From Calditrichota bacterium (GTDB lineage Bacteria; Zhuqueibacterota; Zhuqueibacteria; Residuimicrobiales; Krinioviventaceae): a stretch of DNA of 42,792 bases. The translations under genes were made by a program, and so were the position numbers. Below, piece after piece: positions 3,501 to 28,218 of this stretch (the first letter of the stretch is position 1; every line of letters begins with the position of its first letter). The DNA is taken from positions 1-42,792 of the forward strand of contig JAADGR010000204.1 of the NCBI GenBank assembly GCA_013152225.1, read 5' to 3'. Under the pieces are notes generated by a model. It ran no database searches. It was not told the DNA's origin and worked only from the letters and a program-made list of their open reading frames with translations.

Positions 3501-6500
3501 AACGAATGAATTCAGAAAACCCTTCGGCAGTGCGTCTCAAATCCTGATCATAGTCCAGATTTCTTAGCTCAGCGTTGAAAACTTCTTTGCCGAAGTCTTG
3601 ATCAATATCCACTTTACCAAACATGCGATTTTGCAGGTAATGACCTAATTCATGGGCAATAGCGTCAATATCTGCTTCACTTCTGGATTTGACCAATCCG
3701 TAAACGTAATATTTCGCTTTAATCTCTTTGAGCCATCGATCCAGATTTTTCTTTCTGAATTGGACCTCCGGGAACAGCTTACGTAATTTTCTGATCAAAT
3801 CCTTAGTGGACATTGCTTCCTGCTCGCCCACATCAACAATCAAATCCGCCGGAGCCTGAATCGGACGAACGGTGCCAGCTGCCACAGCAAATCCTTCTCC
3901 TTGGCGCCGTCTCCGGATGGATTTCCCCTTTTCTTCAAGAATTTCATTTACTAATGCTTCGCTGGATTCAACAATGCCTTCTTCAATATCAAGTTTTTTG
4001 ACATCCCCTTTTACCGTTGCTCCCAGCGCTTTCATTTTATAAGAAATGATTGCCTTATTCCATTCATCGACTTCTGTATCAGAAAAAATAAAGTAAACTT
4101 TTGCACGGGATTTAGTCGTTACACGAACAATACGGCCAGCCATCTGGACGTTATCCATCGCTGAAAATGGCGGCGTAATAACAATCATACTTCGCGGCTT
4201 ATCGCCGATTACATCATCCAGATTGATGCCCGTACCCCCGCTTTGTGGGGTTGCCACCAATACCTTAGTTTCACCTTTTTGAAAACGCTGGATTTCTTTT
4301 TTCGCGTCTTTATTAGAACCATATACTCTGGAAAAAGAATTTTCCCCGTATTTCTCCGTTAAAGCTTGCTCTAATTCTTTTATCGTTCCTTCAGTGGCAG
4401 AAATAACCTCCACATGGTAGTCCACGAGATTACCAGATTGATCATAAATTGGAGTTCGATGAACAACTTCTGTTGCATTAACTCTTGTGGCAAATACGAC
4501 AACTTGTCTACCTTCTTTAATCTCTCTCTCAATGATTTCCAGAGTGGAATTTACTTTGTAATATTCTAAAGCCCGGCGTTGCGCCATGAGATTCCTGGCC
4601 TTCAGCAATCCATCCATTTTTGGATCGCCGGTCATCATATTTGTATAATATTTGTCGATGGCCTCAAGATCAATGTATGCCTGATCAGGTAATTGAACCG
4701 TTACAACTTCCACATCCAGCTTATCCAATGATACTTCACGTTTAACCATCTTTCCTTCAGATGTAAGCTGGTCAAAGTAACGGGACAAATTAGCGGCCAT
4801 TTCTGCAGCAGTTACATCCGGTTTCCTGGAATAGTAAATGATTTCTTTTCTGCCATATTTCGTGTTGATTTTTCGACGTACTTCAATGACACCCAGTTCA
4901 TTAAGGATGGCCAGGAATTCATTGTAGTCTTTAAAAATCCCGAGCTTATTCAAATAATAAATTTGTTGGGGTTTGTCTAATGGTGTGGCCGAAGCATAAA
5001 GTACCCGCGCGGAATATTCGGCAAGTCTAATCCCGTTTTTCGCTTTGGCGCTTTTATCAAAATTTTTCAAATTGTGAGATTCATCGAATATTAAAACAGA
5101 TAATCTCGAACCAATAGACAATGGGATCTTTTTGCGTGTAAGGTCATGATATGTAGCTACATAAATTTTATTGTCTTCAATGTTCCCTTTGAACCTCTCA
5201 ATTTCCACTCCGAGTACAGCCGCATCCTTTTCAAACGCATCTTTGATAATTCGATCGTTTTCCGTAATGATTAGCGCAGGTTTGTTTTCTCTGTCCGCAT
5301 AATATGCCGCAATAGCAAGTTCTTGCATTGTTTTTCCTGCACCCGTTCCATCGGCAAGTAAAAAACCACCATTTTTATCAATGGATTCAATTGCCAGATT
5401 AACGCCATCTCTTTGATGTGGTTTTAAAATTCCGCTAATGCTCGGATGTAAGTGATCCTCCGACGGACTCCGGGTGAATTCCGACCGCGCTTCGACAACT
5501 TCTTCGTATTTTCTTGGACTTCGTGGTAAAAGTCGGTATTTACGTCCACGACCACTTTCTTTTGCAATGCTTTTCGAAGTCTCTTGTGATTTGCCTTCAT
5601 CTCTGGCCTCCTTATGATCTATTAATTGCTTAATTAAAACTCGATTTGCATCAACACGGAATGTTGCCAAATCATCCTCAACGAAATCCGGGTGAATCTC
5701 AACAATCTCACCATTATTAAGTACCCGAACAATTGTGCCAGTAACTTCCTTTTCCCATTCTTTTTCCGGTTTAACCAGTACCTTAGTCCCATAGAATCTT
5801 TCTTCTTCCTCAATGGGCACTTTACCGATGACTTTATCAAATGAATTTTCTTCTGCCGGTTTGTTGATAGTTACTAACCGCACCTTCACTCCAGTCGGTC
5901 TCTCGGAAGAAAGAAAAGCTCCTTCTGGCAACTTCTCACTTTCCCCACCAATTCGCGCTAACCATTCACGAAATTCGACGCTCTTTTTATCTGTTCTATT
6001 AAATGGGCCTTCACTCATGATGGCCACAAGTTTGCCACCGGGTTTAAGCAGTCGATAAGCATGCTGGACATGATCAATGTCTTGACCGTTCTCAAACGGT
6101 GGGTTCATTAAAATTTTATCGTATTCTCCTTCAAATTGCAGAAAATCCTGGCCGACGATTTTAAATCCGCGCAATTCCAGTAATTCACGCAATGTTGAGC
6201 TAATCTCGATAACATCCGGTTCAACGCCTGTTTTCTCACGTATGACCAATGCAATATTCCCTTTTCCTGCACTTGGTTCTAATACCTTATCGCCCTTTTT
6301 AATATCAGCGATTTCGACCATCCGCTCCGCAATTGGCTTTGGAGTCGGAAAGTAGCTTTCTATTTTTGTTCCGATTAATTCACGTTCACGTTCCTTAATC
6401 TTTTCTTCTTTAATTTCAGCTTCAGTTTTTGGTCTGATGTATTCATTTAATAACTTCTTAACTTTTTTTAAGTCACCCGTTGTCTCAATTCCTGCACGCT

Positions 6501-9500
6501 CAAATCGCCTGATTTGTTTGATCGTATCATCAAGTATTTTCAATGTTGGATTGATTTCACCTTTTTGTTTCTTAATCGCCTTCAGAATAGATTCTACAGC
6601 ATCGATTTCAACATCAGATAATATAGCTTTTGCCCCTTCACCGGATAATCTCTTTTCAATTTTCTTGATTATCGCTTTATCTTTGGAAATCCCTTTTACA
6701 TTTTCACTGTCTTTCAGTAAATCGTTGAGTCGGAATGGATATAAAACAACTTCCGGAAAATTTTCTAATCTGAGTACATCTTTAATAATTTGCTGAGTGT
6801 CCAATTTGAAAAGAGCAGAATTCAATTGGCCTTTTTCCGCATCTGTGATCATTCCCTTAATGATATCTCTCACTTTCTTAAGAAATTCCGCTTCCCGGGC
6901 CATACCGGCGGCAATTCTTGCCCTTCTCGGCGTAACACGTTGTTGAGCAATCGCCGGATTTTCCAGCTCATCAATTTTCTTTTCAATGCCGGGTAAAATC
7001 TTTTCTAATTTTTGAGCTAACTTCTGCTGATCAGTTGGAGGTTGTTTTTCTTCTTTCTCAGCTTTTTCAGGAACAGTTGGAGCCGTTTCAGTTGCTTCTT
7101 CAATTCCTCGGTTGATGGCATCACGACGACCTTGTTTGATTTCCTGGATGGTTTCATCCTTTACACCTTCCTCTCTTATTTCATTTTCAAGATTCTCTAT
7201 TTGACTGAATAGATCTAATTGAGATTGCCGTATTTTTTTAAGCGCTTCATCTCGGTTCTGCTTTAACTCAATTAATTCCTTTTGAATTGCGGAAACTTTC
7301 TCTTCATAAGGCTTTAGCGCATTAATTAATTGTTCACCTTCAGCCCCTTGTTTCAGAAAATATTTACGTTTTTCATCAAGCTCTTTCTTGGCATCTTTGA
7401 GTTCGCCTTCTAAATGCGCGATTTTTTCATCGTATTCAATTTCATCTGCACTACGTGGTACAAGATTTTTCAGATTAAGAGGTTGGCCTTTAATTCCACC
7501 GAAAAGTCCACCACCACGTTTCTGGATTGCGCGATTTATGAATTCTCGGAATTCTGAAGATGTACCGAATCGTTTACCAAATTCCATTAAATAATCCCAC
7601 ATCTCAGTTTCGTGGGAATCTTCAAGTTCCGTGAATTGACGCCTGGCCTCCCCAACCCATTGGGCATATTTAACTACATCCGGATCTTCACCAGTGCGTT
7701 CAAGCGCTTCAATAACTTTACCGTCTGGATTTAAGAAAGAATAAGCAAGGATTCGATTTGCGTTTCGACCTTCGTATTTTTGTGCTTCTTCAATGATTTC
7801 CTTTCTGCTTTTCCCCTGTCTTCTGAGTTCACGGTAGTATTGAGCACGTTCGACGGCCGTTTCTTTTGTGGCCAATACATTCGATCGTTTAGCGATTTCC
7901 TGAGCTTCCTGTTTACTTACTCCTCGAATGATTTTGGCAGGGATTTTCTCAAAATCCGTTAGACCCTCTTTTGCTAATCGCTTAAAAGCCTCAGTTCTTG
8001 AATGCCCGGCAAGGATATACAATTCATTCGTTTCCGGATCTTCCCACAATAAAATTGGATCGAACTCCTCAAATCGGAATTCACCCTTTTTTGCAGCCTC
8101 AACAATTCGATTTACAGACTCTTCGCTGTATTCACGTTTGCGATTTTGAAAGGCATCAACATCGGTTTTAATTTGAGATAAAGGTATATCAGAAATTTGG
8201 ATTTTTTCTGTTGGTTTAAGTTCCTTCCGTTCCTTCAATTTATTTTTGATTCTTTCATATAGGTTTTTAATTAAATTATAATTCTCCTCTAATTTTTTCG
8301 TCATTGCATCATCGGGCATCTTCTGGCGCATTTCTGCAAGAGAAGGTTCAACTCTTTTCATGTAATTTTTTAATTCCTGAAGGATTACATCAGCGTTGTT
8401 AGGTTGTTCCTGCTTCAACAATAATTCAGCACGTTCAACGAGTCCTGATATGAGATTATCTGGTTTTTCTGGTGTTCTACCTTCAGACTTCTCTAATAAT
8501 TTGTTGTTTATGTCTTCATATTTTTTAAATAAGTCTGGATAATTGCTAAGGATATCGGGTGGGACTGGATGACCTTTTAAAATCTGCTTTTCAATAGTCT
8601 TTTTATGTTGAATCAATTGAATTTCATCAAATAAGTTACTCTCAGTTAAATCTTTGCCTTTCTTTTTCAGTTCTCTTCTGGCGATCTGTTCTACTTGTTC
8701 ATCGGATAGATGGGCATATAGTGTTTTTTCTTCGGCTTCCTTCTCTTCCTGTTTTTTCCGATAGGTCTTAATTTCATCCATGAATCGTTCATATGGAATG
8801 ATCTCAACATCTTTAGCTTCTTCTTCAAATCGCTTTCGACTCTCCTTATCTAATTCATGGATTTCTGGACGATATCCAATTGTGGAACCTTGCGGATCGT
8901 TAACCAAAACAACTGCCTTCTTGGCGCCCGGGACAAACTGTAACCCTACATATTCGACCGGGATTTTCTCTTCTTTTTCTGGTACCGCTTCTTCGCCCTT
9001 TCGACCTTCTTCCGGTCGTATCCCGGATATACCGGGTTGTCCGGGTGCTGGCTGTTCCAGATCCTTGCGGCCTTCCGTTTCGCGGCCTTCAGGGGCAATC
9101 CTTCTCTCACGAATTTGTCCCTCATCTTTTCGTAACCTTTGGGCATTTTCTATTTCCTCCGCTAATGCCTTTTTGCCAATCTGGAAAATATTCCCTTTGT
9201 CATTCTTTACTGTCACTAAAGATCCTGTAATATCAGTAATCTCAACCGGGCCATATTTTTCTGTATCTACGATATTTCCGATTTTAATCTCAGCAGGCTT
9301 CTCAATTCTTTGTTTAATAGGCTCCTTCTTCTTTTTTGCGCGTTGTTTAATTCGTTCCAACTTTTCACGATCTATTTTTTCCCTGCGTTTACGCTCTTCC
9401 TCGCCGCGAACATTAATGCGTTCATGAAGTTGTCTTTGTTTAAACTCTTCCAGTGTTTCACCGAGACGAACGGGGCCACCTGGACGTTGAACATTTAATG

Positions 9501-10800
9501 CTTCGCGCTTGGCAATTTCATCAAGGATCTGTCGATATTGCTCTTCTTCTGCTCTCTCCATCCTTTGTTGTTGGATCGCATTAATTGCATCGACGTTAAT
9601 CTGTCCAACAGCTCGACCACCCAGCAAGATAGCCATGGGGCCGGCGGATTCTAAGAGTGTACGCATTACGTTTATGAAATAGTCACGGAGACCGAAGTTT
9701 TGGACATCTGTTCCAGCGATCAAATTTGATATCTTTCGTCCCACATCCTGAAAGATCATTTGCGATAATTCCTGTAAACCTTCTTCGCCAACTTCCTGAA
9801 TCCAGTCGCGCCCATATCGCTTTACCATCTGCTGGACATACTCTTTAGCCGTATCGGCGATAATACGGTTTGCTGTTTGTTTGAGGCCTGGAAAAATTTT
9901 CGCTGCCTGACTGAATTCTATGGCTGCATAGGGTAAACCACCTGCCTGTGAAACAATAGAAGCTATTTCTCTGGGTATCCCTTCACGACGAAGATCCCTG
10001 TACAAATCCCCAACACCTTGCCGATACCAATATTGTGCGGATCCAATAATAGTACCAATCGATGCTGCAGCCGGGACTGTGAAAACTTCTTCTGGAGCAA
10101 GGATTTGTGGCCCGGCCTGGCCTGCGGCAGCTGCAGCGCCTGCCAGTGCACCACCGTAAATTAAACCTTCAAGCGTACCCTTTGCCATGGGGCCAGCAAT
10201 ACCAGCGGCACCATAAACAAATTTCTCCAGCCAGTTGCGTGCTTTAATTGGATCATCTTTGTACATCTCAATAAATTTCTTTTCCGCTACCTGCCATTCG
10301 CGATCACCACTTAATCCAACTGCCGCCTGATAAGCAAGATGATCGATGTTAACATCTTCCATAGACCGCTTAAATGATTCCTTTAGATTCTCAAGGAATC
10401 CTCTCGGTCTGGGTTCAAGTTTGGGCAATGGCTTTTCTTTAACTCCCGGGGCATACTTTAAACCCGCAGGGAGAGGCGGAGGAGTAACCTCTCCCTGCTG
10501 TGGTTCGGCCGTGGGAGCTGGAGGAGGTACGGCAGAAGGAGTAATCTTTTCTTTTCGGAGTTGTGGCAACTCTCTGACTCCACCAGCAAGCGTAATTAAT
10601 TTGGCTTCTGCTGGCTCCTGTGGGCCAGGGGCTTTATATTTAATTTTTCCTGCGAATCTTAACGTGAAAGCACCCAAAAATTTATTGTAAGGGATGTCTG
10701 AATAATATTTCTTATGAATCCCTTTCAGGATTTGATCATCAGAGAGATCATTGTATTGCGGGTATTTCTCCCTGAAATTTTTGAGTGCCTGATCAATCAT
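538..10800 (-). CDS. giant polyvalent protein (3,420 aa): ParB-like domain + N6-adenine DNA methyltransferase + SNF2/SF2 helicase + HExxH metallopeptidase motif + hydrophobic segments; probable virion-packaged ejected protein
   Basis: This is an uninterrupted 10.3-kb ORF. Motifs read from the translation: ParB-like ELYILAGHSRTEAF (about 7981-8030); MTase motif I VLEPSAGKGN (6256-6285) and motif IV NPPF (6094-6105). Helicase motifs are PHQRDGV, LADGTGAGKT (about 5328-5360), DESH (5074-5085) and QMAGRIVR (about 4121-4150). HELGH lies at 3640-3654. Gly/Ala-rich hydrophobic stretches lie at about 10000-10230 and hydrophobic segments at about 1320-1520. Confidence 0.85.
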   Translation of the reverse strand: MIDQALKNFREKYPQYNDLSDDQILKGIHKKYYSDIPYNKFLGAFTLRFAGKIKYKAPGPQEPAEAKLITLAGGVRELPQLRKEKITPSAVPPPAPTAEPQQGEVTPPPLPAGLKYAPGVKEKPLPKLEPRPRGFLENLKESFKRSMEDVNIDHLAYQAAVGLSGDREWQVAEKKFIEMYKDDPIKARNWLEKFVYGAAGIAGPMAKGTLEGLIYGGALAGAAAAAGQAGPQILAPEEVFTVPAAASIGTIIGSAQYWYRQGVGDLYRDLRREGIPREIASIVSQAGGLPYAAIEFSQAAKIFPGLKQTANRIIADTAKEYVQQMVKRYGRDWIQEVGEEGLQELSQMIFQDVGRKISNLIAGTDVQNFGLRDYFINVMRTLLESAGPMAILLGGRAVGQINVDAINAIQQQRMERAEEEQYRQILDEIAKREALNVQRPGGPVRLGETLEEFKQRQLHERINVRGEEERKRREKIDREKLERIKQRAKKKKEPIKQRIEKPAEIKIGNIVDTEKYGPVEITDITGSLVTVKNDKGNIFQIGKKALAEEIENAQRLRKDEGQIRERRIAPEGRETEGRKDLEQPAPGQPGISGIRPEEGRKGEEAVPEKEEKIPVEYVGLQFVPGAKKAVVLVNDPQGSTIGYRPEIHELDKESRKRFEEEAKDVEIIPYERFMDEIKTYRKKQEEKEAEEKTLYAHLSDEQVEQIARRELKKKGKDLTESNLFDEIQLIQHKKTIEKQILKGHPVPPDILSNYPDLFKKYEDINNKLLEKSEGRTPEKPDNLISGLVERAELLLKQEQPNNADVILQELKNYMKRVEPSLAEMRQKMPDDAMTKKLEENYNLIKNLYERIKNKLKERKELKPTEKIQISDIPLSQIKTDVDAFQNRKREYSEESVNRIVEAAKKGEFRFEEFDPILLWEDPETNELYILAGHSRTEAFKRLAKEGLTDFEKIPAKIIRGVSKQEAQEIAKRSNVLATKETAVERAQYYRELRRQGKSRKEIIEEAQKYEGRNANRILAYSFLNPDGKVIEALERTGEDPDVVKYAQWVGEARRQFTELEDSHETEMWDYLMEFGKRFGTSSEFREFINRAIQKRGGGLFGGIKGQPLNLKNLVPRSADEIEYDEKIAHLEGELKDAKKELDEKRKYFLKQGAEGEQLINALKPYEEKVSAIQKELIELKQNRDEALKKIRQSQLDLFSQIENLENEIREEGVKDETIQEIKQGRRDAINRGIEEATETAPTVPEKAEKEEKQPPTDQQKLAQKLEKILPGIEKKIDELENPAIAQQRVTPRRARIAAGMAREAEFLKKVRDIIKGMITDAEKGQLNSALFKLDTQQIIKDVLRLENFPEVVLYPFRLNDLLKDSENVKGISKDKAIIKKIEKRLSGEGAKAILSDVEIDAVESILKAIKKQKGEINPTLKILDDTIKQIRRFERAGIETTGDLKKVKKLLNEYIRPKTEAEIKEEKIKERERELIGTKIESYFPTPKPIAERMVEIADIKKGDKVLEPSAGKGNIALVIREKTGVEPDVIEISSTLRELLELRGFKIVGQDFLQFEGEYDKILMNPPFENGQDIDHVQHAYRLLKPGGKLVAIMSEGPFNRTDKKSVEFREWLARIGGESEKLPEGAFLSSERPTGVKVRLVTINKPAEENSFDKVIGKVPIEEEERFYGTKVLVKPEKEWEKEVTGTIVRVLNNGEIVEIHPDFVEDDLATFRVDANRVLIKQLIDHKEARDEGKSQETSKSIAKESGRGRKYRLLPRSPRKYEEVVEARSEFTRSPSEDHLHPSISGILKPHQRDGVNLAIESIDKNGGFLLADGTGAGKTMQELAIAAYYADRENKPALIITENDRIIKDAFEKDAAVLGVEIERFKGNIEDNKIYVATYHDLTRKKIPLSIGSRLSVLIFDESHNLKNFDKSAKAKNGIRLAEYSARVLYASATPLDKPQQIYYLNKLGIFKDYNEFLAILNELGVIEVRRKINTKYGRKEIIYYSRKPDVTAAEMAANLSRYFDQLTSEGKMVKREVSLDKLDVEVVTVQLPDQAYIDLEAIDKYYTNMMTGDPKMDGLLKARNLMAQRRALEYYKVNSTLEIIEREIKEGRQVVVFATRVNATEVVHRTPIYDQSGNLVDYHVEVISATEGTIKELEQALTEKYGENSFSRVYGSNKDAKKEIQRFQKGETKVLVATPQSGGTGINLDDVIGDKPRSMIVITPPFSAMDNVQMAGRIVRVTTKSRAKVYFIFSDTEVDEWNKAIISYKMKALGATVKGDVKKLDIEEGIVESSEALVNEILEEKGKSIRRRRQGEGFAVAAGTVRPIQAPADLIVDVGEQEAMSTKDLIRKLRKLFPEVQFRKKNLDRWLKEIKAKYYVYGLVKSRSEADIDAIAHELGHYLQNRMFGKVDIDQDFGKEVFNAELRNLDYDQDLRRTAEGFSEFIRLWLTGEDTKRYAPNFTEYFESEILEKHDKNKSFRKARKLIKKFREQGIENFVKAQAGLTEPRNRLKRIKEVLKDIGDSPFEHTLNSIALLYQRLRQKFVDDAAVVEWLFKKMLGANYYGLRAKENPIHIYRNFKMKAGAIADEMINNGVYDIHTGETITRGIRQILKDVVDRGHRLDDFLMYIYARHALTWWNPVEEGVEPKNPGISEEQARYIVDKYKNKDFDDLGDEVTKYFDELLRMVMREGGISEELYQKMRDRYPYYIPLLRNLLSDKDLVYAITRRGLANQPSPIKRAKGSDLPLEPMINAWIKHTERMVIWAQKARLMNAMVNLTNFEGLSALIKKTSPPVEAKTISVNNLVDMLTDLGVVEPNEDIGDIDIKLNLFFTQVYFNKQGIPVVSVWENGRRKWYELHPELYKFIMQIDAKPVTGLAKFLAPFARAVRLGATGINPSFIFIRNALRDSFEGLVMSQSGKTIPLHNTVSGLISELMRGKEVSDVLKQLGIDPKMAELYAKSGGVMSTMAGYDRAKLEAMADLLIERVDGNVIKFGMKHPVEGLRLLFSAIENATRIDEFKKVYYKVLKETGDKEEAFARAARASQDVTVDFARAGTVGRELNQIIPFYNAGIQGFSKFIRAFFTEKEITGYDPYTQRPVYTRINAAKRFAKGIVWLVGLSMLSYFLRNRDEWEKLEPHFRYNYFHFWINGTHLIIPTPFVIGALFHGATQTLLLELENDPEVTEEYLKYLFYEQFVSLFPLPMNIAGIGPYMQVMANKDWAGRPIEPKYARETKPPSEITYPWTTKTAEMAVKKILKPLGIDGISPIQLEYLLNAYTGGLFGRIIRPVEAVTGIKEKEKREELADLPIIGTLFARDMPLRNKYTQRFYREYREMLIRRNTENPHPLEPFIKYTIKRIRSIQRNKKLTKKEKDKQIADIITQNWKLVEKWKTEDKERLKVLRIKIKARKFKPEEYFEYIYLQNKFKVKERELIAK

Positions 10801-22831: not shown

Positions 22832-23064
22832 TTTTCCTCCTTTCGAAAAATTTCTTCTGCCGACACACCGAAATGATCCCGGAAATCACACATTTCGGTC
22901 GGCAATACAGCCGAATACCCACCACATTCGCAACACCGATACACGCCGCACATCGTGAATTCGTCCATTTCCCAACGAAACCATGTTTCTTTTTCGCACG
23001 CAGGGCAAAGGCCACGATCGTAATGACGCGAATGCTTTCGATACATTTCAAGAAGCCTTTTCAT
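22828..23064 (-). CDS. Zn-ribbon protein, paralog B (78 aa)
   Basis: It has CPAC...CCEC cysteine pairs and is a paralog of 22553-22831. It has a 4-nt overlap with the terL stop. Confidence 0.65.
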   Translation of the reverse strand: MKRLLEMYRKHSRHYDRGLCPACEKETWFRWEMDEFTMCGVYRCCECGGYSAVLPTEMCDFRDHFGVSAEEIFRKEEK

Positions 23065-24665
23065 ACGCCATCTGCTCCTACAGGTCTTTCCAGTTCAAAT
23101 ACCTCTTCGCGCCAGTTTTCAAGCGCGTAATCATCATCTTCGCGCGGTTGGCGCGGCACATGTTTTTCTGGCTCAAATAGGGCCAGAACGCTGTATCTGG
23201 TCTCATCAAGCGCGTGATCGTACACATTCGGATCATTTCCCCGGCCCTCGATATCCTCCGGCACTTTTTCATCATGCTGGGCGGCAACAATTTCCTCAAT
23301 CAGCGGATCATTGAACCCGTCAAAATACTTCCACTTTCTCTGCCGCATGAGCTGCTTCCATGCCCACCATCCCAATACCCTTTCCGTCCGCGCTTTCCGG
23401 AGCGAAAGGCCCAGGATATTTCGAAAAACGCGCTCGAACGTGTATTCATTCGAATGGATCGCAGAAGGCGAGTTCCGCTCGAATGCATCATGCCCGGCTA
23501 CGATGTAGTCCGGCATCCGCCCGCGCGTATACGGGAAATTTTCGATCATTTCACGGATGGCCCGCGCATGCTGGTCGGGGCTCGCGTCGCGAACGTAATA
23601 TGTGAAAAGCCGGTATATATTCCCTTCGAAATCCCGCGCGGAAAGGCCGAAGGAACAGGGGGAACTCCACCCAGGGTCGAGGGATCCGATGAGAGACCAA
23701 TCTTCCGGGATGATGAACGGCCGCACACATAACTGGTTCGAAAAATCGTCGAAAAAGTCGCCTGAGAAAGCATCCCAGTCGCCGTGGAGTAATGCGCGCT
23801 CATATTTCGCGCCCATGGCCCGGATATTCTGTACGTAAGTAGGGTCATTTTCCATGAGAATGCGGTTCTCATGCAGGAATCCCGGCACAAACGTTCTCGA
23901 TCGCGCGTCCGGGTGGTCCCGGTTGACCATAATGCCCATCGGGTTCACGTACGGATCGGAAACACTGCGATCGGGGGCAAAATAGTAGGTTTTTTTCGGC
24001 TCGAGGACAATATCACCGTTTCGAATGAATCGCTTCTTCACCCACAGCAAACCGGCACCGGTAGGGTTCGTGGTGGCCCGGATGCGTGGGAATAGGCCCG
24101 GAATAGTACTCCGAGCACGGGAAAAAAGGTAAAGATACTGCGTGAGCGTGAATTGGGTGAGTTCGTCAAAGCCGACAAACTGGTACTCAATTCCCTGGTG
24201 CGACTCTTTGTCTTCCTCTAACTCCATGTGACAAAAGAAGATACGCGCACCCGAGGGAAATGTAAACGAAGGGCCCGGATCTCCCCGGCGGTGGGCAGTG
24301 TATGTGGCATGGAATGGGCTGGAACAGTAGTATTTCTTCGCTTCGTCGATGAGCTTCGAGAGCTGCGTGGTCTTCCGGCGGAAGATGACAGCACGGTAGT
24401 CGGGGATTTCGACTGCCGCCTTCTGAACAGGTGTGGATCGAAACTGGAGGCCAAGTGCGTCGATCACCAGCGCCCATGATTTTCCGGGCCCAGCGGCGCC
24501 CCCGAACAGTACTTCGAATTCGCTTCGGGTAAAATATTCCCATTGCCCGCCCTTCTGGGGCTGGATCACCTTCGCATTTTTCGGTATGCGAGGCGTGCCC
24601 TTTTTCGGTCTCCCACGCTTTTTTTGCAACAGCCGAAGCGGTTTTTCAGCCTTTTTCGCCGCCAT
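23061..24665 (-). CDS. terL: terminase large subunit
   Basis: It has the Walker A motif FGGAAGPGKSW and the Walker B-like motif VGFDELTQF, with a nuclease-half-sized C-terminus. I prefer the start at M35 (ATG 24665). The ORF-track start at 24767 would add a hydrophobic extension overlapping terS by 122 nt. Confidence 0.8.
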   Translation of the reverse strand: MAAKKAEKPLRLLQKKRGRPKKGTPRIPKNAKVIQPQKGGQWEYFTRSEFEVLFGGAAGPGKSWALVIDALGLQFRSTPVQKAAVEIPDYRAVIFRRKTTQLSKLIDEAKKYYCSSPFHATYTAHRRGDPGPSFTFPSGARIFFCHMELEEDKESHQGIEYQFVGFDELTQFTLTQYLYLFSRARSTIPGLFPRIRATTNPTGAGLLWVKKRFIRNGDIVLEPKKTYYFAPDRSVSDPYVNPMGIMVNRDHPDARSRTFVPGFLHENRILMENDPTYVQNIRAMGAKYERALLHGDWDAFSGDFFDDFSNQLCVRPFIIPEDWSLIGSLDPGWSSPCSFGLSARDFEGNIYRLFTYYVRDASPDQHARAIREMIENFPYTRGRMPDYIVAGHDAFERNSPSAIHSNEYTFERVFRNILGLSLRKARTERVLGWWAWKQLMRQRKWKYFDGFNDPLIEEIVAAQHDEKVPEDIEGRGNDPNVYDHALDETRYSVLALFEPEKHVPRQPREDDDYALENWREEVFELERPVGADGV

Positions 24666-25083
24666 TTCCAGCGCCACCCCCAGATTCACCGCCCCCAGAA
24701 AAACCAGGAACGACATATACAGCGTGAGAAACGTCCATCTTGCCGTCGAGGGATATGCTTTTTTCATCTTTGTACCCGAAATTGTTCCTGAGATCGAACA
24801 TTGACACGTTTGGGTTGATTTTGTTTCTGAGTGACATATCTAAGCGCTGATTCTCGATTCGCAGCAGCGCCCTCCCTATTGTGTCAGAAAATTTCTTCTT
24901 TTTTTTGAGATCGAAAATCGACTGCCGCCGTGAAAATCCGAGAAAATACGCTATACCCGGCACAGTGTAGAGCTTTCCATCTGCATCACACGCCTGGAAG
25001 TACTCGTCTATTTTCGCCTGTAGCTCTTCCGCAGTTCGATATTTTGGTGGCCTACCTACGCTTTTTTTCTCCTTTTTCGCCAT
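24646..25083 (-). CDS. terS: terminase small subunit
   Basis: The N-terminus (GRPPKYRTAEELQAKIDEYFQ...YTVPGIAYFLGFSRRQSIFD) matches the HTH pattern of small terminases. It lies immediately upstream of terL. Confidence 0.65.
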   Translation of the reverse strand: MAKKEKKSVGRPPKYRTAEELQAKIDEYFQACDADGKLYTVPGIAYFLGFSRRQSIFDLKKKKKFSDTIGRALLRIENQRLDMSLRNKINPNVSMFDLRNNFGYKDEKSISLDGKMDVSHAVYVVPGFSGGGESGGGAGNGGEKG

Positions 25084-25194: not shown

Positions 25195-25223
25195 CTGACA
25201 ATTGTAGTTCTTTGTCGTATATT
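25195..25223 (+). promoter_or_regulatory. sigma70-type promoter driving the plus-strand island
   Basis: The sequence is CTGACA (25195-25200), exactly 17 nt of spacer, then TATATT (25218-25223). An A/T-rich UP-like tract lies upstream. The first SD+ATG follows at 25266. Confidence 0.6.
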
Positions 25224-25265
25224 GTGGTGGGAGCTGAAAACCACAAAACAAAAGGAGGAGAAGTC

Positions 25266-25703
25266 ATGGCAGTCCAAGTCTCTCAAAACCAAATCCAAAA
25301 GATTTTCGACAGGTTTTCTCGGAGAAACCGTGCAACTCACAGGGCCAAGGAAGATTTTTTTGCTATTCTCCGAAAGATTTCCGAACAATTCCCAGATCGT
25401 GCTTCCGGATATTGCACTCACGAAACATTCTTCGTGAAATTTTCATTCTGGTCTCAGCGCGCTGGTCATTGGGTATACGGTGAAGGTAAATGCTATCTCC
25501 GGATTGAGGATGGAAATGCCGTCGTCGTGACAGACAGAGATCCTGACTGGTCTCGTGTGCTTGAGGAAAACGAAATAGATTACTTCAACGTCAAGCAAGC
25601 CATCAAAGCACTGGATGATTTCGTAGGGAAACTTCTAAACGTGGAAACCTTCGAAATCGAATCAGAAAAGCTCGCTCAAATCCGCAAAATCCTGGAGTCC
25701 TAA
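25266..25703 (+). CDS. hypothetical protein (146 aa)
   Basis: AAAGGAGGAG lies 5 nt before the ATG at 25266. The ORF-track TTG start at 25212 lies inside the promoter -10 region, so I moved the start. Confidence 0.6.
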   Translation: MAVQVSQNQIQKIFDRFSRRNRATHRAKEDFFAILRKISEQFPDRASGYCTHETFFVKFSFWSQRAGHWVYGEGKCYLRIEDGNAVVVTDRDPDWSRVLEENEIDYFNVKQAIKALDDFVGKLLNVETFEIESEKLAQIRKILES

Positions 25704-25704
25704 T

Positions 25705-25857
25705 ATGAAATTGAAATCCGATCGAACAGTAGTGCGTTCTATCCGCCTGCCACTTCGCCTGTGGCGGGCGGTTCAGAAAGAGGCCCAACGAAACTTCACC
25801 ACTCCCGCCGCCATAATTCGGAGAGCGGTGGCAGAGTGGTTAAAAAAGCGGGGTTGA
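25705..25857 (+). CDS. ribbon-helix-helix (CopG/Arc/MetJ-like) DNA-binding protein (50 aa)
   Basis: Hand translation is MKLKSDRTVVRSIRLPLRLWRAVQKEAQRNFTTPAAIIRRAVAEWLKKRG. It shows a beta-strand plus two-helix pattern. The ATG is 1 nt after the upstream stop. It is below the ORF-track size cutoff. Confidence 0.65.
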   Translation: MKLKSDRTVVRSIRLPLRLWRAVQKEAQRNFTTPAAIIRRAVAEWLKKRG

Positions 25858-25870
25858 GTTTGGGGCTGGT

Positions 25871-25938
25871 CTCCCTCGCCTGGTGGCCCCAGCGGGCTGA
25901 AAACCCGCGGGCCCCGGTTCGATTCCGGGAGAGGGAGC
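25871..25938 (+). tRNA. tRNA-like element E1, anticodon loop CTGAAAA (GAA, Phe-like), with reduced D arm (non-canonical, 68 nt)
   Basis: Hand fold: acceptor CTCCCTC/GAGGGAG; mini D arm GCC-TGGT-GGC; anticodon stem GCGGG/CCCGC; T arm CCCGG-TTCGATT-CCGGG. There is no encoded CCA. Confidence 0.45.
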
Positions 25939-25973
25939 TAAAGGCTACAAAAATAAAAGGAGGATGATTCATT

Positions 25974-26228
25974 ATGTTTTACAAAAAATTTCACCGGTAT
26001 GCAGGCAGTGACGGGGTACTTTATTACTGCACATCTCCCGCCACTGCAGAAAGTTTTTTTAAATTAAAACCTGCCAGTTTTAACGCAACATGGCAGGGGA
26101 CTGTCCCTGTTTATCGCCGCGGAGATGGCGAATTATTTGCCGCCAACTTCCGCGGTGATGGGGGAGAGCAATTGAAACGAATCACCAGGGGCGTTTACGT
26201 CCGCTGGCATGGGGATGGTGTGTATTAA
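25974..26228 (+). CDS. hypothetical protein (84 aa)
   Basis: An AAGGAGG SD lies 10 nt upstream of the ATG. The ORF sits between tRNA-like elements E1 and E2. Confidence 0.55.
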   Translation: MFYKKFHRYAGSDGVLYYCTSPATAESFFKLKPASFNATWQGTVPVYRRGDGELFAANFRGDGGEQLKRITRGVYVRWHGDGVY

Positions 26229-26237
26229 GTTTTCAGC

Positions 26238-26305
26238 GGGCCCGTCTTGGTAGGAATGCGGGCCTTGAAACCCGCGGTCGAGGGTTCGAATCCCTCACGG
26301 GCTCC
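26238..26305 (+). tRNA. tRNA-like element E2 with reduced D arm and 8-nt anticodon loop CCTTGAAA (non-canonical, 68 nt)
   Basis: Hand fold: acceptor GGGCCCG/CGGGCTC (one G-U); mini D arm TCT-TGGT-AGG; anticodon stem GCGGG/CCCGC, identical to E1; T arm GAGGG-TTCGAAT-CCCTC. Confidence 0.4.
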
Positions 26306-26318
26306 AAAGGCCGGCCTA

Positions 26319-26378
26319 CCCGGGCGGAGATTTTCGGGGCAACCCCTTTGAATCCGCCGCCCGGGGCCCCGGAAGGGG
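26319..26378 (+). other. GC-rich nested hairpin structure between E2 and E3
   Basis: CCCGGG-CGGA...TCCG-(CCG)-CCCGGG encloses GGGG-CAA-CCCC. A second hairpin, CCCC-GGAA-GGGG, follows. No U-tract follows, so it is not a classical terminator. Confidence 0.4.
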
Positions 26379-26433
26379 TTCAAAAAGGGATTGAAAGAGG
26401 GTTGCCAGCGCCGACGGCTGAGACGGTCGATAT

Positions 26434-26508
26434 TGCGGGGTGGAGCAGTCTGGTAGCTCATCGGGCTCATGACCCGAAGGTCGCAGGTTCGAATCCGGGA
26501 GGGGGAAC
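26434..26508 (+). tRNA. initiator tRNA-Met(CAT)-like element E3; 3' T-stem/acceptor strands do not pair (probable chimeric or pseudo-tRNA)
   Basis: The 5' part (D arm, anticodon arm, variable region, 5' T-stem strand and T loop) resembles bacterial tRNA-fMet. It has D arm GAGC-AGTCTGGTA-GCTC and anticodon arm TCGGG-CTCATGA-CCCGA with 3 G-C pairs. The 3' end CCGGGAGGGGGAAC is not complementary to GCAGG or TGCGGGG. Confidence 0.5.
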
Positions 26509-26521
26509 TAAAGGAGGAGTA

Positions 26522-27166
26522 ATGAAAGCTCGCGTTTGCAAATATTGGGATTCTTCGCAAATCCAGCAATGGTTCGGGGTTTCCCGAGCCACTGCATATC
26601 GGGGGAAAAAGCGGGGCTGGATTCGACTCGGATATCATCATCGAGTTGTGATCCCGGCCCCAAATAACCCCGATATTCCTATCGAAATGATTATTATCCC
26701 CGCAATCGCCGCCGTGAAACGGCTGGCGAATTTGTGGGGATGGAAGATAGATGGATGGTTCTGGGACGCAATTCAGGAGGCATGTCTTCGCCTTCTGGAG
26801 CTCTCTGGCCATCCGGATTTTGGAAATTTTACTTTCCGATGGATCGCGGCAAGGAATGCCGCGAGTAACTTTCTCCGGATGAACATTCGGATGGTATCCG
26901 AACTTCCGGAGAATCTGGCATGGAAGCCTGCAGAAGGAAATGAGGAACTATTTGAAAAAATTTTTGCATCTCTGACGGAGAGAGAGGCGCAAATTCTGGA
27001 TAGATATTTGTCCGGCTATAGAAGGGATCTGCCGGACAAACTGGTAACGAAAATAAAAAGAACCATGTTCGGGGAAACTACCTCCGCTGGTACCGCAGTA
27101 AGTCCCCACTGCGGGTCGGGTTCGAATCCCGAACGTTCGCCGGCGTCCTCGCCAGGCGCTGGATGA
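26522..27166 (+). CDS. ECF-like sigma-70 family factor with N-terminal HTH
   Basis: AAAGGAGGAG precedes the ATG at 26522. A region-2-like segment reads DAIQEACLRLLE...FTFRWIAARNAASNFLR, and a region-4-like segment reads LTEREAQILDRYLSGY...KLVTKIKRTM. I prefer this start to the ORF-track start at 26348, which runs through the tRNA-like DNA. Confidence 0.55.
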   Translation: MKARVCKYWDSSQIQQWFGVSRATAYRGKKRGWIRLGYHHRVVIPAPNNPDIPIEMIIIPAIAAVKRLANLWGWKIDGWFWDAIQEACLRLLELSGHPDFGNFTFRWIAARNAASNFLRMNIRMVSELPENLAWKPAEGNEELFEKIFASLTEREAQILDRYLSGYRRDLPDKLVTKIKRTMFGETTSAGTAVSPHCGSGSNPERSPASSPGAG

Positions 27167-27349
27167 ACGGGAGCGGGGGATGGTTAATCAAAAAAAGGAG
27201 GTGCGGCGACCGTCATCGTAAAGCTGGTTTGCCAGACGTGCGGGGAAACTTTCGATTTTGATCCCCACGACTACTCAATCAAAGGGCTTCAGAGCATTCC
27301 GAAGTCCTGCCCTGCCTGCTGCGACAAGCGGCAGGGGCTGGAAAAGATT

Positions 27350-27895
27350 GTGCTGAGCAGGAAATGTCTCCAAGAATGGGACGGAGTAAAGCTCACCATC
27401 TGGCCATGGTATTTCGAAGAAAAGGTTTCGGGGCTATATTACATCCACGGCTGGGGTGGGCGCAAATACGGAGTCTGGGGCGGTGCCCGGCATATGGGGA
27501 AAACTTTGATCTTCATTCACAAGGAAGTACTCGAAAAATTCAAAAAAGACAAGGAAGTCGTAGTGAAAATCCGGAAAATGAAAAAAACGATTTCCAAAGA
27601 AGGCATTAACGGACAGCAGATTACTGACGATTCCGAGTATCTCGTTTTCGATCCAACCGATGCCACTCCAAAGTTTTATCTTTATGAAGTTCGATCCTGG
27701 CACAAGACCACTTTGAAAGGGTTCGGCCGGGATCGGAATTACGAGGAACAAGTAAAACCCGTGGAAAGTGATATCGCCTACACAGTTACGATCGCTCATC
27801 ACAGCAGCCACGCTAACAGCATGCGGTTCGGGAATGAATACAAACTCATTATTGCCGACCGTGAGTGCGAAATTGTTGGCAAAGGTACGCCTTAA
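27350..27895 (+). CDS. hypothetical protein; the reading frame is open from 27188 and encodes a CxxC...CxxC Zn ribbon upstream of the listed GTG start
   Basis: The same frame upstream of 27350 translates to VIVKLVCQTCGETFDFDPHDYSIKGLQSIPKSCPACCDKRQGLEKI. There is no in-frame ATG, GTG or TTG between 27188 and 27350. The true start is unresolved (see findings). Confidence 0.5.
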   Translation: MLSRKCLQEWDGVKLTIWPWYFEEKVSGLYYIHGWGGRKYGVWGGARHMGKTLIFIHKEVLEKFKKDKEVVVKIRKMKKTISKEGINGQQITDDSEYLVFDPTDATPKFYLYEVRSWHKTTLKGFGRDRNYEEQVKPVESDIAYTVTIAHHSSHANSMRFGNEYKLIIADRECEIVGKGTP

Positions 27896-27971
27896 TCGAA
27901 AAACGCGGCGGCCACGGCCGGAGACGAGTAAAGCCGCCCCGCGTGGCGCAAGGCGGCGAATGGAGGTTGAA

Positions 27972-28157
27972 ATGTCGTTCCTAAAGTTGTTTTTCGCCAT
28001 AGTAGCGGCCATTGTGGCCGCTGTTGTAGTTACCATCGCAATATTTGGGGCAGCATATTTAACTGCCCAAAAATTCTTCGGGATTGTAGCCGGAGGCATA
28101 ATTATTTGCTTGGCGGCGATTGGCATATTCGCCAAGCACATTCACGACCATGCCTGA
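27972..28157 (+). CDS. small two-transmembrane-helix protein (61 aa)
   Basis: GGAGG lies 5 nt before the ATG at 27972. The sequence MSFLKLFFAIVAAIVAAVVVTIAIFGAAYLTAQKFFGIVAGGIIICLAAIGIFAKHIHDHA has two hydrophobic helices. It is the last gene before the terminator. Confidence 0.6.
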   Translation: MSFLKLFFAIVAAIVAAVVVTIAIFGAAYLTAQKFFGIVAGGIIICLAAIGIFAKHIHDHA

Positions 28158-28186
28158 AATACCCCTACCACCGTTTCTCTCCCCCC

Positions 28187-28218
28187 AGCCCCGCCACCGC
28201 GCGGGGCTTTTTATTTTT
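28187..28218 (+). terminator. intrinsic terminator ending the plus-strand island
   Basis: The stem is AGCCCCGC / GCGGGGCT (8 bp) with loop CACCGC, followed by TTTTATTTTT. On the minus strand the hairpin has no U-tract. Confidence 0.7.

Follow-up and report, generated by a model that had tools for sequence, protein, structure and literature searches.

The window analysed here, a 42,792-nucleotide stretch of contig JAADGR010000204.1, carries two elements, E1 and E2, that are real, tRNA-derived and beyond chance, and that are not canonical tRNAs. Both look like intact but shortened tRNAs. As the best explanation, which we favour tentatively, we propose that E1 and E2 are tRNA-like RNAs that do not decode and that RNase P and RNase Z cut out of the transcript at the borders of cistrons. 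The preliminary description covered these two elements only. The cluster comprises four tRNA-derived elements on the same strand (E1–E4; Table 1), of which E3 and E4 are broken, and this raises the rival reading of a decaying, recombining tRNA cluster.

An explicit pair check on the sequence reproduced the 68-nt layout of both elements and found 20 of 20 standard pairs in each (two of those in E2 are G–U), which bears out the shared non-canonical architecture proposed in the preliminary description. As in canonical phage tRNA genes (RF00005), E1 and E2 have a 7-bp acceptor stem (7 of 7 standard pairs) with a discriminator base, a 5-bp anticodon stem, a 4-nt variable region, the GG of the elbow and a 5-bp T stem with the GGTTCGAWTCC motif and a T54-Psi55-C56-R57-A58 loop. 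From TGGT onward they are collinear with a normal tRNA, and the spacing of 31 nt between TGGT and the T loop is canonical. Like many phage tRNAs, they would be co-transcribed with small ORFs. E1 further has a perfect Phe-type anticodon loop (7 nt, CTGAAAA, with U33 and a purine at position 37), is weakly similar to phage tRNA-Phe genes and is descended from a gene of tRNA-Phe type. Unlike canonical tRNAs, both elements are 7 nt shorter on the 5′ side, without positions 8–9 and the 5′ D-stem strand (10 nt precede TGGT, versus 17 in the canonical 5′ part of E3); in place of a U8/N9 connector and a 3–4-bp D stem with a 7–11-nt loop, the best available structure is a 3-bp stem with a 4-nt loop. 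They also differ from canonical tRNAs in an extra A or an eighth pair at the acceptor/T junction, in the discriminator C and, for E2, in the 8-nt anticodon loop CCTTGAAA.

The unpaired A and the lack of an encoded CCA, both noted in the preliminary description, hold in the register used there. In E2, A26297 can pair with T26245 to give an 8-bp acceptor stem, and the absence of CCA is register-dependent because the ARAGORN register (26239–26305) places a CCA (26304–26306) directly 3′ of the acceptor strand. The ARAGORN register of E1 (25870–25938) removes the bulged A at the price of one C–A mismatch and one G–U pair.

Table 1 Features of the accessory cassette, in window coordinates.
Feature	Position	Strand	Description
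Promoter-like site	25195–25223	+	CTGACA, 17-nt spacer, TATATT; 10/12 consensus positions; consensus match only
P1	25266–25703	+	145 aa; no known family
P2	25705–25857	+	50 aa; ribbon-helix-helix / Arc-like repressor; PHROG 6506, E = 8e-9; Pfam RHH_1 below cut-off
E1	25871–25938	+	tRNA-Phe-derived element, 68 nt
E1 acceptor strands	25871–25877 / 25931–25937	+	CTCCCTC / GAGGGAG
E1 D-like hairpin	25878–25887	+	GCC-TGGT-GGC, then linker CCCA
E1 anticodon arm	25892–25908	+	GCGGG-CTGAAAA-CCCGC; anticodon GAA at 25899–25901
E1 variable region	25909–25912	+	GGGC
E1 T arm	25913–25929	+	CCCGG-TTCGATT-CCGGG
E1 bulged A	25930	+	
E1 discriminator C	25938	+	
P3	25974–26228	+	84 aa; between E1 and E2; strong ribosome-binding site
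E2	26238–26305	+	Same layout as E1, 68 nt
E2 acceptor strands	26238–26244 / 26298–26304	+	GGGCCCG / CGGGCTC
E2 D-like hairpin	26245–26254	+	TCT-TGGT-AGG, then linker AAT
E2 anticodon arm	26258–26275	+	GCGGG-CCTTGAAA-CCCGC
E2 variable region	26276–26279	+	GGTC
E2 T arm	26280–26296	+	GAGGG-TTCGAAT-CCCTC
E2 A	26297	+	
E2 C	26305	+	
E2–E3 spacer	26306–26433	+	Non-coding, 63% G+C; long imperfect hairpin at ~26338–26405, z = -1.8
E3	26434–26510	+	Chimeric pseudo-tRNA: initiator tRNA 5′ part and E1-like tail
P4	26522–27166	+	214 aa; N-terminal helix-turn-helix-like motif
E4	27088–27135	+	Degenerate E2-like copy: TGGT, 7-bp helix, T arm, ‘ACG’
P5	27203–27895	+	230-codon ORF; real protein family; N-terminal CxxC...CxxC zinc ribbon
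P6	27972–28157	+	61-aa hydrophobic ORF
Terminator-like hairpin and T run	28187–28208	+	Intrinsic type; closes operon; P6–terminator span 27972–28218

ARAGORN called both E1 and E2, and made no call in 260 shuffles (0/60 dinucleotide shuffles of the window and 0/200 shuffles of the cassette). The exact T-loop motif GGTTCGAWTCC occurs in four copies, all on the + strand and within 1.2 kb, where 0.03 copies are expected. Against the Rfam tRNA model RF00005, E1 scored 27.7 bits, below the gathering score of 29, and was aligned only with its D arm collapsed; for E2, no RF00005 match was among the Rfam matches listed. ARAGORN labelled E2 as tRNA-??? and, in -mt mode, as a ‘D-loop’ tRNA with anticodon ttga. 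Neither Rfam nor ARAGORN placed a canonical cloverleaf with other boundaries on either element. ARAGORN found no tmRNA (a tRNA-like domain with a tag mRNA-like domain), and the Rfam tmRNA model gave only an 18-nt local match to the T arm of E2 (15.1 bits; threshold 47 bits). The mascRNA–menRNA model RF01684 likewise stayed below threshold on E2 (18.9 bits, E = 0.79; threshold 42.5 bits). Searches for tmRNA, Y-RNA-like, riboswitch and other Rfam families gave no meaningful match.

Thermodynamic predictions were less favourable to the proposed 3-bp D-like stem: its pairs are standard, but the hairpin is weak (pair probability 0.40 in E1 and 0.26 in E2), and the minimum-energy folds use a longer anticodon helix built from linker and variable nucleotides in its place. 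When 30–50 nt of flank are included, the energy minimum of either element is not uniquely tRNA-like, and the z-scores are not significant. That the predicted minimum-energy structure with flanks is not tRNA-like counts against the excision of E1 and E2 as tRNA-like RNAs.

Comparison of E1 with E2 revealed 58% identity (40 of 69 aligned columns) and ten pair-preserving double changes, at 5 of 7 acceptor, 3 of 5 T-stem and 2 of 3 D-like pairs; every pair is intact in both elements. These changes uphold the earlier argument that two copies with different acceptors speak against chance. The T stem of E4 adds two further compensatory changes relative to E2 (repeat D7). The anticodon stems of E1 and E2 are identical and the whole arm nearly so (GCGGGC..TGAAA..CCCGCGG), with the 8-nt loop of E2 arising from the E1 arm by indels (repeat D1). 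We read E1 and E2 as paralogues of tRNA origin. A point against their excision as processed RNAs is that the ‘compensatory’ differences may reflect nothing more than two different parental tRNAs.

E3 and E4 are the damaged members of the cluster. Positions 26434–26498 of E3 correspond to the 5′ part of a bacterial-type initiator tRNA-fMet, with A11:T24, three G–C pairs in the anticodon stem and a CAT anticodon, but with G37; E3 is ~90% identical to phage and bacterial tRNA-Met genes and scores 29.3 bits against the Rfam tRNA model, at model positions 8–63 only. From the T loop onward it continues as an E1-like tail, CCGGGAGGGGGAACTAAAGG, with the junction within GGTTCGAATCC. This tail, E1′, matches E1 at 83% over 36 nt (repeat D5), and the T and acceptor stems of E3 are unable to form (z = -0.02). 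E4 consists of TGGT, a 7-bp helix with an 8-nt loop (27093–27114), an intact T arm (TCGGG-TTCGAAT-CCCGA, 27116–27132; 89% identical to that of E2) and a final ‘ACG’, without acceptor pairing and without a match to the Rfam tRNA model. Both fit the ‘partial tRNA’ part of the definition of an integration or recombination scar. The order along the strand is E1, E2, E1′ and E2′ (E4), so arranged that the copies bracket first P3 and then P4. A 9-bp complement to the 5′ end of E3 at 26698–26706 was judged to be chance, as ~17 such pairs are expected in 3 kb.

To judge from its sequence signals, the cluster belongs to a single accessory operon of an SU10-like phage, running from promoter to terminator, and would be transcribed with it. 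The promoter-like site heads this + strand operon and is divergent from the small terminase gene; between it and the terminator, E1 and E2 lie by position at the boundaries of other RNAs of a putative longer transcript. E1 starts 13 nt past the P2 stop codon and E2 9 nt past that of P3, and AAAGG or a ribosome-binding site follows each element (repeats D2/D4), with the tail of E3 supplying the ribosome-binding site of P4. The last ~28 codons of P4 run through E4, and the collinear homolog at the related locus L014 ends ~28 residues earlier; this P4 tail is predicted to be unstructured by a low-confidence model. P5 has a strong ribosome-binding site (27196–27201) and no ATG, GTG or TTG before 27350, and the ATG of its homologs aligns at or beside window codon ACC 27209. 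E4 is absent from the homologous P4–P5 junction of L014, where P5 has a normal ATG. The E4 insertion seems to have cost P5 its ATG, which looks like damage rather than design and counts against excision as a selected trait.

Among the cassette proteins, searches of Pfam, PHROGs, NCBIfam, PADLOC and PDB sequences identified a function for the RHH/Arc-like P2 only, and AlphaFold2 modelling of P4 and P5 from single sequences gave confidence too low for use (pLDDT 42 and 35). No RNA ligase, kinase/phosphatase or CCA enzyme was present among the other phage ORFs scanned.

As far as the searches reach, the E1–E4 cluster is found in this one phage only. Exact IUPAC patterns for the E1 D/anticodon region, for the shared core from anticodon arm to T loop and for the E1/E3 tail gave 0 matches in IMG/VR, JGI metagenomes and GTDB genomes, as far as the scans reached, a search by which diverged relatives would be missed. 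Nor was an E1 or E2 homolog found in INPHARED phages, in six related phage lineages or in three loci with P5 homologs, and no tRNA or T-loop motif lay near the terminase gene in TerL relatives of 58–76% identity from six SU10-like lineages; the closest of these (L010, 76%) spans just 2.3 kb and includes only ~140 bp ahead of TerL, too little to show the position of the cassette. No close P3 homolog was found. An exhaustive HMMER search recovered 84 relatives of P5, which marks the 0 matches of a concatenated P1+P3+P4+P5 query as a false negative. The P5/P4 contexts L013, L014 and L015 contained no tRNA-like elements, further scans yielded none, and the sole comparative result is the presence or absence of E4 at P4–P5, in one homologous gene pair (L014). 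Because none occurs near the terminase gene in six related lineages, nor at the junction of the only homologous P4–P5 module, the elements are dispensable, which counts against the excision reading.

We suggest the following route for E1 and E2. Transcribed within the accessory operon (25224–28215), each would fold so that the GG of TGGT docks on the T loop to form an elbow; host RNase P would cut the putative 5′ ends, and RNase Z or exonucleases would trim the 3′ ends. Cleavage would split the polycistronic mRNA at the P1–P2 | E1 | P3 | E2 boundaries and set free tRNA-like RNAs of ~68–70 nt that take no part in decoding. It may be selected, for mRNA punctuation or stability or for the released RNA, or it may merely be tolerated. 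Both elements keep the features used in end processing, namely an acceptor stem of 7–8 bp that stacks on the 5-bp T stem, the canonical T-loop residues T54, T55, C56, R57 and A58, and the GG of TGGT. Three observations count for this route: the retention of structure while sequence diverges; the loss of decoding features (the 8-nt loop of E2, the missing positions 8–9 and 5′ D strand, the sub-threshold tRNA-model score of E1 and the lack of a listed tRNA match for E2); and the placement of all four elements on the coding strand at cistron boundaries of one promoter-to-terminator unit. The nucleotide before the 5′ end of E1 is a T, and bacterial RNase P prefers U at position -1. Against this reading, half of the family, E3 and E4, is clearly broken.

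Such elements have precedents. In plant mitochondria, RNase P and RNase Z act on t-elements and so define where mRNAs end (PMC1920247); mascRNA and menRNA (RF01684) mimic tRNAs, and RNase P, by processing them, matures the transcript in which they lie (PMC11693755). Like them, E1 and E2 mimic tRNAs in reduced form, with the acceptor stem and T arm present and the D region minimal; in those systems the mimics lie inside longer transcripts, the RNase P and RNase Z cuts set the ends of the neighbouring RNAs and there is no decoding, and E1 and E2 would be processed in the same manner. The known examples are eukaryotic or organellar, and E1 and E2 have no sequence or model homology to them. The tRNA-like domain of tmRNA also has an acceptor stem and a T arm, and its GG lies in a D loop without a stem; unlike tmRNA, E1 and E2 have no mRNA-like domain, tag ORF or G3:U70. 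Should E1 and E2 prove to be both processed and stable, bacterial viruses would have in them a counterpart to the plant-mitochondrial and mammalian-nuclear tRNA-like processing signals, and a tRNA could lose half its D arm yet stay foldable in a phage.

The main rival, which we consider possible but on balance unlikely, is that the elements are inert remnants: the wreck of a phage tRNA cluster reshaped by deletions and T-loop recombination, with E1 and E2 as pseudogenes and any processing incidental. E3, which joins an initiator 5′ part to an E1-like tail and cannot fold, is what such a history would leave, as is E4, a copy without acceptor stem that sits within the 3′ part of an ORF and is missing from the homologous junction. 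The lack of such elements in every relative examined and the covariance-model scores below threshold point the same way, and partial tRNA genes from recombination or integration, a class that E3 and E4 resemble, are often mis-called as tRNAs by automatic tools in prokaryotic annotation (PMC9897764). E1 and E2 differ from that class in holding both acceptor strands, perfectly paired; the window contains no full-length parent, and no integrase is among the ORFs scanned. Decay is also hard to reconcile with 20 of 20 pairs intact in each element despite 42% sequence divergence, or with the contrast between E1′, in which 2 of 7 acceptor positions have drifted, and the fully paired E1. The same 7-nt shortening at the same place would require two identical independent deletions, which is unlikely, and the different linkers after TGGT (GGCCCCA in E1 versus AGGAAT in E2) mean that a single gene-conversion tract does not explain the shared layout. 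If the elements are debris, the locus would still show clearly how recombination through T loops can remodel a phage operon, and how tRNA finders report non-canonical elements as tRNA genes.

A bolder proposal places E1 and E2 in a phage-borne class of tRNA-like RNAs with truncated D arms under structural selection, either the first reduced-D adaptors working outside organelles or decoys that trap a tRNA-targeting defence or enzyme through a conserved anticodon arm; we regard it as improbable. For decoys or ligands as such, in which the anticodon arm of the released RNAs would bind a host defence nuclease that targets tRNAs, a toxin, a tRNA-modifying enzyme or else a protein encoded in the phage operon, the probability is low. 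Decoys, like processing signals between cistrons, were among the ideas of the preliminary description. The identical anticodon stems suggest sequence-specific recognition of the arm, as the acceptor and T stems diverged freely, but arm identity may merely reflect recent gene conversion. We know of no nuclease that targets tRNA-Phe-like arms, and the cassette proteins gave no match to a defence or anti-defence family. The cassette is accessory, lineage-specific and located at the early/late junction, where counter-defence genes tend to lie, and phage tRNAs do counter tRNA-cleaving defences (PMC12409363; bioRxiv 10.1101/2023.03.15.532788). Decoys of this type would be a new kind of counter-defence RNA.

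Working adaptors are very unlikely. Under this explanation E1 would be a minimal tRNA-Phe and E2 a tRNA with an 8-nt loop (reading the quadruplet UCAA, or a Ser or Gln codon), both charged and used by the ribosome, as the preliminary description had allowed in proposing minimal functional tRNAs. For E1 this is doubtful: it retains GAA, U33, A37, A38, U20 and the elbow-forming nucleotides, and its U59–U60 (T loop TTCGATT) presumably match E. coli tRNA-Phe, but U8, A14 and the 5′ D strand are missing, as they are from E2, and the discriminator is C (or G), not the A73 of tRNA-Phe. For E2 it is unlikely, the anticodon arm being that of E1 with indels. The extra A or eighth pair at the acceptor/T junction and the model scores given above also count against adaptors, and the long ORFs of the phage read normally in the standard code, with no need for recoding or frameshifting visible.

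Two groups of aberrant tRNAs bear on this point. D-arm-lacking mitochondrial tRNAs often have no canonical T loop and are served by specialised elongation factors. They are A+T-rich, in contrast to E1 and E2, which have 66–74% G+C, a fully canonical T arm and a bacteriophage setting. Those of animals (tRNA-Ser) and nematodes do function, with a D-replacement loop in a cloverleaf-like molecule as in E1 and E2 (PMC7609411), and odd-shaped tRNAs exist in bacteria and their phages; size reduction is nonetheless a mitochondrial feature, other tRNAs keeping a standardised size and structure (PMC5389517). The 4-nt D loop of tRNA-Sec recurs in E1 and E2, and E2 can form the 13-bp arm (8-bp acceptor plus 5-bp T stem) known from tRNA-Sec and allo-tRNA (PMC5389517, PMC7609411), a geometry that lowers EF-Tu binding in tRNA-Sec (PMC7609411) and so argues against an adaptor. 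Unlike tRNA-Sec and allo-tRNA, E1 and E2 lack a long variable arm, their D stem has at most 3 pairs versus 6, and their anticodons are neither UCA nor of a described allo-tRNA type. If E1 and E2 proved to be charged, the minimum shape accepted for working tRNAs outside organelles would have to be revised.

A role at the DNA level, as att-like recombination sites or cassette ends with E3 as the hybrid of a T-loop crossover with an initiator tRNA gene, is highly improbable: the flanking of P3, and likewise of P4, by an E1-type copy on the upstream side and an E2-type copy on the downstream side, the E3 junction inside the T-loop core (where many tyrosine integrases cross over) and the presence/absence polymorphism of E4 would suit it, but the reciprocal hybrid site is missing, the ORFs scanned yielded no integrase or recombinase, and pair-preserving stem changes are expected for RNA rather than for a protein-bound DNA site.

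An antisense regulator in the style of phage P1 C4 or phage P4 CI RNA is not supported: complementarity is limited to one 9-mer, shared by the E1 loop and the leader of E2, such matches also occur elsewhere in the window, and the Rfam C4-target match (12.4 bits) is noise. A foreign origin of the cassette, as judged from G+C, was rejected as well. The cassette ORFs (45–54% G+C) resemble the neighbouring head genes (47–54%), and the G+C peak is formed by the elements themselves.

The elements E1 and E2, two shortened 68-nt tRNA-like genes, can both fold into a single layout, as seen on reading positions 25500–26700 and in a scripted check of each proposed pair: a 7-bp acceptor stem, a 3-bp stem around TGGT, a 3–4-nt linker, the same anticodon stem (GCGGG/CCCGC), a 4-nt variable region, a 5-bp T stem with the loop TTCGAWT, a single A 5′ of the 3′ acceptor strand and a terminal C. 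The pairs are standard throughout (20 of 20 in each element), which bears out the architecture given in the preliminary description. The elements are not due to chance, since ARAGORN called a tRNA-Phe(gaa) at 25870–25938 and a 'tRNA-???' at 26239–26305 but made no call in 60 dinucleotide-shuffled copies of the window or in 200 of the 3-kb cassette. In the ARAGORN register, CCA lies directly 3′ of the 3′ acceptor strand of E2, and the bulged A of E1 disappears at the cost of one C–A mismatch and one G–U pair; in E2, A26297 is able to pair with T26245, yielding an 8-bp acceptor stem. The 3-bp 'D' hairpin is weak (pair probability 0.40 in E1 and 0.26 in E2), and in the minimum-energy folds the anticodon helix is instead lengthened by linker and variable nucleotides. 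When flanks are folded as well, the predicted optimum is no longer uniquely the tRNA-like fold. Nucleotides 26316–26328 can also base-pair with E2 itself, in its 5′ acceptor and D region (26241–26254), and compete with this fold. The 9 nt directly upstream of E2 (26229–26237, GTTTTCAGC) complement the anticodon loop and closing pair of E1 (25895–25903, GCTGAAAAC); this 9-mer has one further copy elsewhere in the window, the shorter TTTTCAG is common, and the complementarity may be due to chance.

When aligned to E3, the adjoining canonical tRNA fragment, E1 and E2 run collinear with an ordinary tRNA between TGGT (the G18–G19 region) and the T loop; the TGGT-to-GGTTCGA spacing is 31 nt in E1, E2 and E3 alike. 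The whole difference lies on the 5′ side, where 10 nt precede TGGT in E1 and E2 versus 17 in E3, indicating that E1 and E2 lack positions 8–9, the 5′ strand of the D stem and the initial bases of the D loop. The Rfam tRNA model (RF00005) scored E1 at 27.7 bits, below the 29-bit gathering score, and aligned it only by collapsing the D arm; the model matches listed for E2 were only to tmRNA, locally and on the T arm alone (15.1 bits), and, weakly, to mascRNA (18.9 versus 42.5 bits). With E1 below threshold and no tRNA match listed for E2, canonical cloverleaves with other boundaries do not displace the proposed ones. Failure on connector and D arm, on score threshold and, in E2, on loop size rules out assignment to canonical tRNA, and neither element belongs to tmRNA or mascRNA. 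Both acceptor strands are present, which sets E1 and E2 apart from partial tRNA genes (PMC9897764), a known class that E3 and E4 fit. E1 retains tRNA-Phe-like details (GAA, A37, A38, U20 and U59–U60 of the T loop). BLAST against 50,697 phage records returned only weak matches to ordinary tRNA genes, those of E1 being to phage tRNA-Phe genes, and E2 showed no likeness there to any particular isotype. Size reduction of tRNAs is a mitochondrial feature, other tRNAs being of standardised size and structure (PMC5389517), and the literature searched yielded no description of D-arm-truncated tRNA-like genes in phages, an absence that is weak evidence. E1 and E2 are a new structural variant among phage tRNA-derived and tRNA-like elements, unusual as paired, compensated and identically truncated copies.

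The window is the genome of a tailed phage, of the SU10-like podovirus type. Its relatives have genes for a P22-type portal, an SU10 major capsid and an adaptor, and its own M15 peptidase indicates a bacterial host. One − strand ORF of 3420 aa (538–10800) takes up a quarter of the genome. The tRNA-like elements lie in a + strand accessory unit, bounded by the small terminase gene on one side and the end of the early genes on the other, whose six ORFs (P1–P6) each have a AAAGGAGG-type ribosome-binding site. The cassette ORFs (45–54% G+C) match the neighbouring head genes, ruling out a compositionally foreign cassette, and the elements themselves (62–74% G+C) form a local peak. The exact motif GGTTCGAWTCC was expected 0.03 times in the window and occurs four times, always on the + strand inside this unit. 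The order of the elements is E1, E2, E1′ (the E1-like tail of E3) and E2′ (E4 as an E2-type copy), so P3 and P4 each have an E1-type copy before and an E2-type copy after.

Features of the accessory unit and its surroundings
Feature	Position	Strand	Description
Terminase small and large subunits	23061–25083	−	Terminase genes of the phage
Promoter-like site	25195–25223	+	Head of the accessory unit
E1	25871–25938	+	68 nt; anticodon loop CTGAAAA, anticodon GAA
E2	26238–26305	+	68 nt; anticodon loop CCTTGAAA, 8 nt
E3	26434–26510	+	5′ part of initiator tRNA-fMet with E1-like 3′ tail
E4	27088–27135	+	TGGT, 7-bp helix with 8-nt loop, intact T arm
GGTTCGAWTCC copies	25916, 26283, 26486, 27119	+	Exact motif match
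Strong terminator	28187–28208	+	End of the accessory unit

The first ~65 nt of E3 are about 90% identical to tRNA-Met genes, and this 5′ part carries the bacterial initiator hallmarks A11:T24 and three G–C pairs in the anticodon stem, together with an unusual G37. From the T loop on, E3 instead matches the 3′ end of E1 and its trailer at 83% identity (CCGGGAGRGGGARCTAAAGG; repeat D5). Neither its T stem nor its acceptor stem can form (folding z = −0.02), and its tail supplies the ribosome-binding site of the next ORF, P4. E3 is a chimera that arose when an initiator tRNA gene and an E1-type element recombined inside the T loop, and is direct evidence of T-loop-mediated recombination within the operon. 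E1/P3 and E3/P4 have apparently homologous junctions (CTAAAGG...AGGA..ATG), that of E1/P3 carrying a 16-nt insertion, and near-identical ribosome-binding contexts (AAYWAAAGGAGG) precede P1, P3, P4 and P5 (25247–25258, 25952–25963, 26506–26517 and 27190–27201). The spacer between E2 and E3 (26306–26433; 128 nt, 63% G+C) is non-coding and contains a long imperfect hairpin at ~26338–26405.

The T arm of E4 is 89% identical to that of E2, trailing ACG included (repeat D7), with two pair-preserving changes in the T stem; no acceptor pairing or tRNA-model match was found for E4. P5, the ORF that follows, belongs to a real family (84 matches by exhaustive HMMER, the best at 45–47% identity over the full length) of conserved ~220-aa proteins with an N-terminal CxxC...CxxC zinc ribbon. 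On L014, a metagenomic contig of 1.36 kb, homologs of P4 (31% identity overall, 40% in the best stretch) and P5 (48%) lie in collinear order; this is the only homologous P4–P5 pair found and the sole presence/absence datum for the tRNA-like elements. There, in the stretch compared (560–660), the P4 stop overlaps the P5 ATG with no tRNA-like element in between, whereas the window junction (27088–27202) holds E4 and a ~75-nt trailer with a new ribosome-binding site, and P4 has gained a ~28-residue tail read through E4. At least one member of the element family is therefore a lineage-specific insertion or junction remodelling. Compared with its homologs, P5 has ACC (27209) at or next to the aligned ATG position; a strong AGGAGG lies at 27196–27201, yet no ATG, GTG or TTG occurs before 27350. 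The nearest near-cognate start codon is ATC at 27215, and the automatic gene call (133 aa) begins at an internal ATG. From its sequence, P5 would either use a non-canonical start or have been recently crippled, and the insertion of E4 seems to have damaged the gene start.

Neither the shared core nor the E1/E3 tail, used as a scan pattern, found a match to E1 or E2 in IMG/VR, JGI metagenomes or GTDB genomes. The large terminase subunit (TerL) has many relatives at 50–76% identity; no tRNA gene or T-loop motif was found in L001–L007 and L010–L012, contigs of six distinct TerL relatives, of which the closest (L010) reaches only ~140 bp beyond TerL on the upstream side, so that the cassette position lies outside the contig. 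Relatives in which the junction is covered have other genes or a short gap there, which makes the cassette accessory. In an SU10-like phage with a 64% identical TerL (L001), an RNA ligase gene (PF09414; 11982–12875) adjoins the terminase gene; the scanned ORFs of the window yielded no RNA ligase.

E1 and E2 share only 58% identity, with every pair intact in both, and they differ by double, pair-preserving changes at 5 of 7 acceptor, 3 of 5 T-stem and 2 of 3 D-like pairs, the T loop and GG being kept. The 7-nt shortening is identical and the linker after TGGT differs, so the layout was not copied by a single conversion tract. The broken copy E1′ has drifted at acceptor positions, whereas E1 is still perfectly paired. 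Decoding geometry was not kept, the E2 anticodon arm being the E1 arm with indels that give an 8-nt loop. This pattern fits putative selection on the acceptor/T minihelix and overall fold, and not on codon reading. RNase P, RNase Z and the CCA-adding enzyme recognise the minihelix and overall fold. We tentatively favour, at somewhat less than even confidence, an interpretation of E1 and E2 as tRNA-like RNAs that do not decode and that host tRNA-processing enzymes cut from the operon transcript; their excision would split the mRNA at the boundaries between cistrons. Plant mitochondrial t-elements mediate mRNA cutting in this way (PMC1920247), and mascRNA/menRNA undergo processing of the same kind (PMC11693755). 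By analogy, E1 and E2 would work most like tRNA-like processing elements, homologous to no described family. Functional claims are speculative because no homolog was found and the wrecked siblings E3 and E4 adjoin.

Graded by probability, the rivals run from inert remnants through a decoy or ligand and true decoding to a DNA-level site. That a recombining tRNA cluster left E1 and E2 behind as inert remnants is unlikely but the strongest of these: the family is a singleton, it is dispensable in relatives, two of its four copies are wrecks and one insertion seems to have harmed the start of a gene, but all pairs are intact in E1 and E2 at 58% identity. A decoy or ligand role, exerted through the sequence-conserved anticodon arm, is improbable. 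True decoding is more doubtful still, as E1 and E2 are without U8, A14 and the D strand, have the wrong discriminator and an extra A or a 13-bp arm, and give sub-threshold model scores; the same features disfavour the suggestion that they are minimal functional tRNAs. A role as a DNA-level recombination site is the least credible, no recombinase having been found among the ORFs scanned. The observation of the preliminary description was confirmed and extended to four elements, and its interpretation stands in part.

A 14-nt repeat, AAAAAGCGGGG(T/C)TG (25843–25856 and 26606–26619), encodes 'KKRG' at the C terminus of the RHH/Arc-like P2 and in the interior of P4. Its first copy, as GCGGGGT...CTGGT (25848–25870), is also similar to the initiator-tRNA 5′ end present in E3 and, judged by this similarity, may be a further tRNA remnant immediately upstream of E1.
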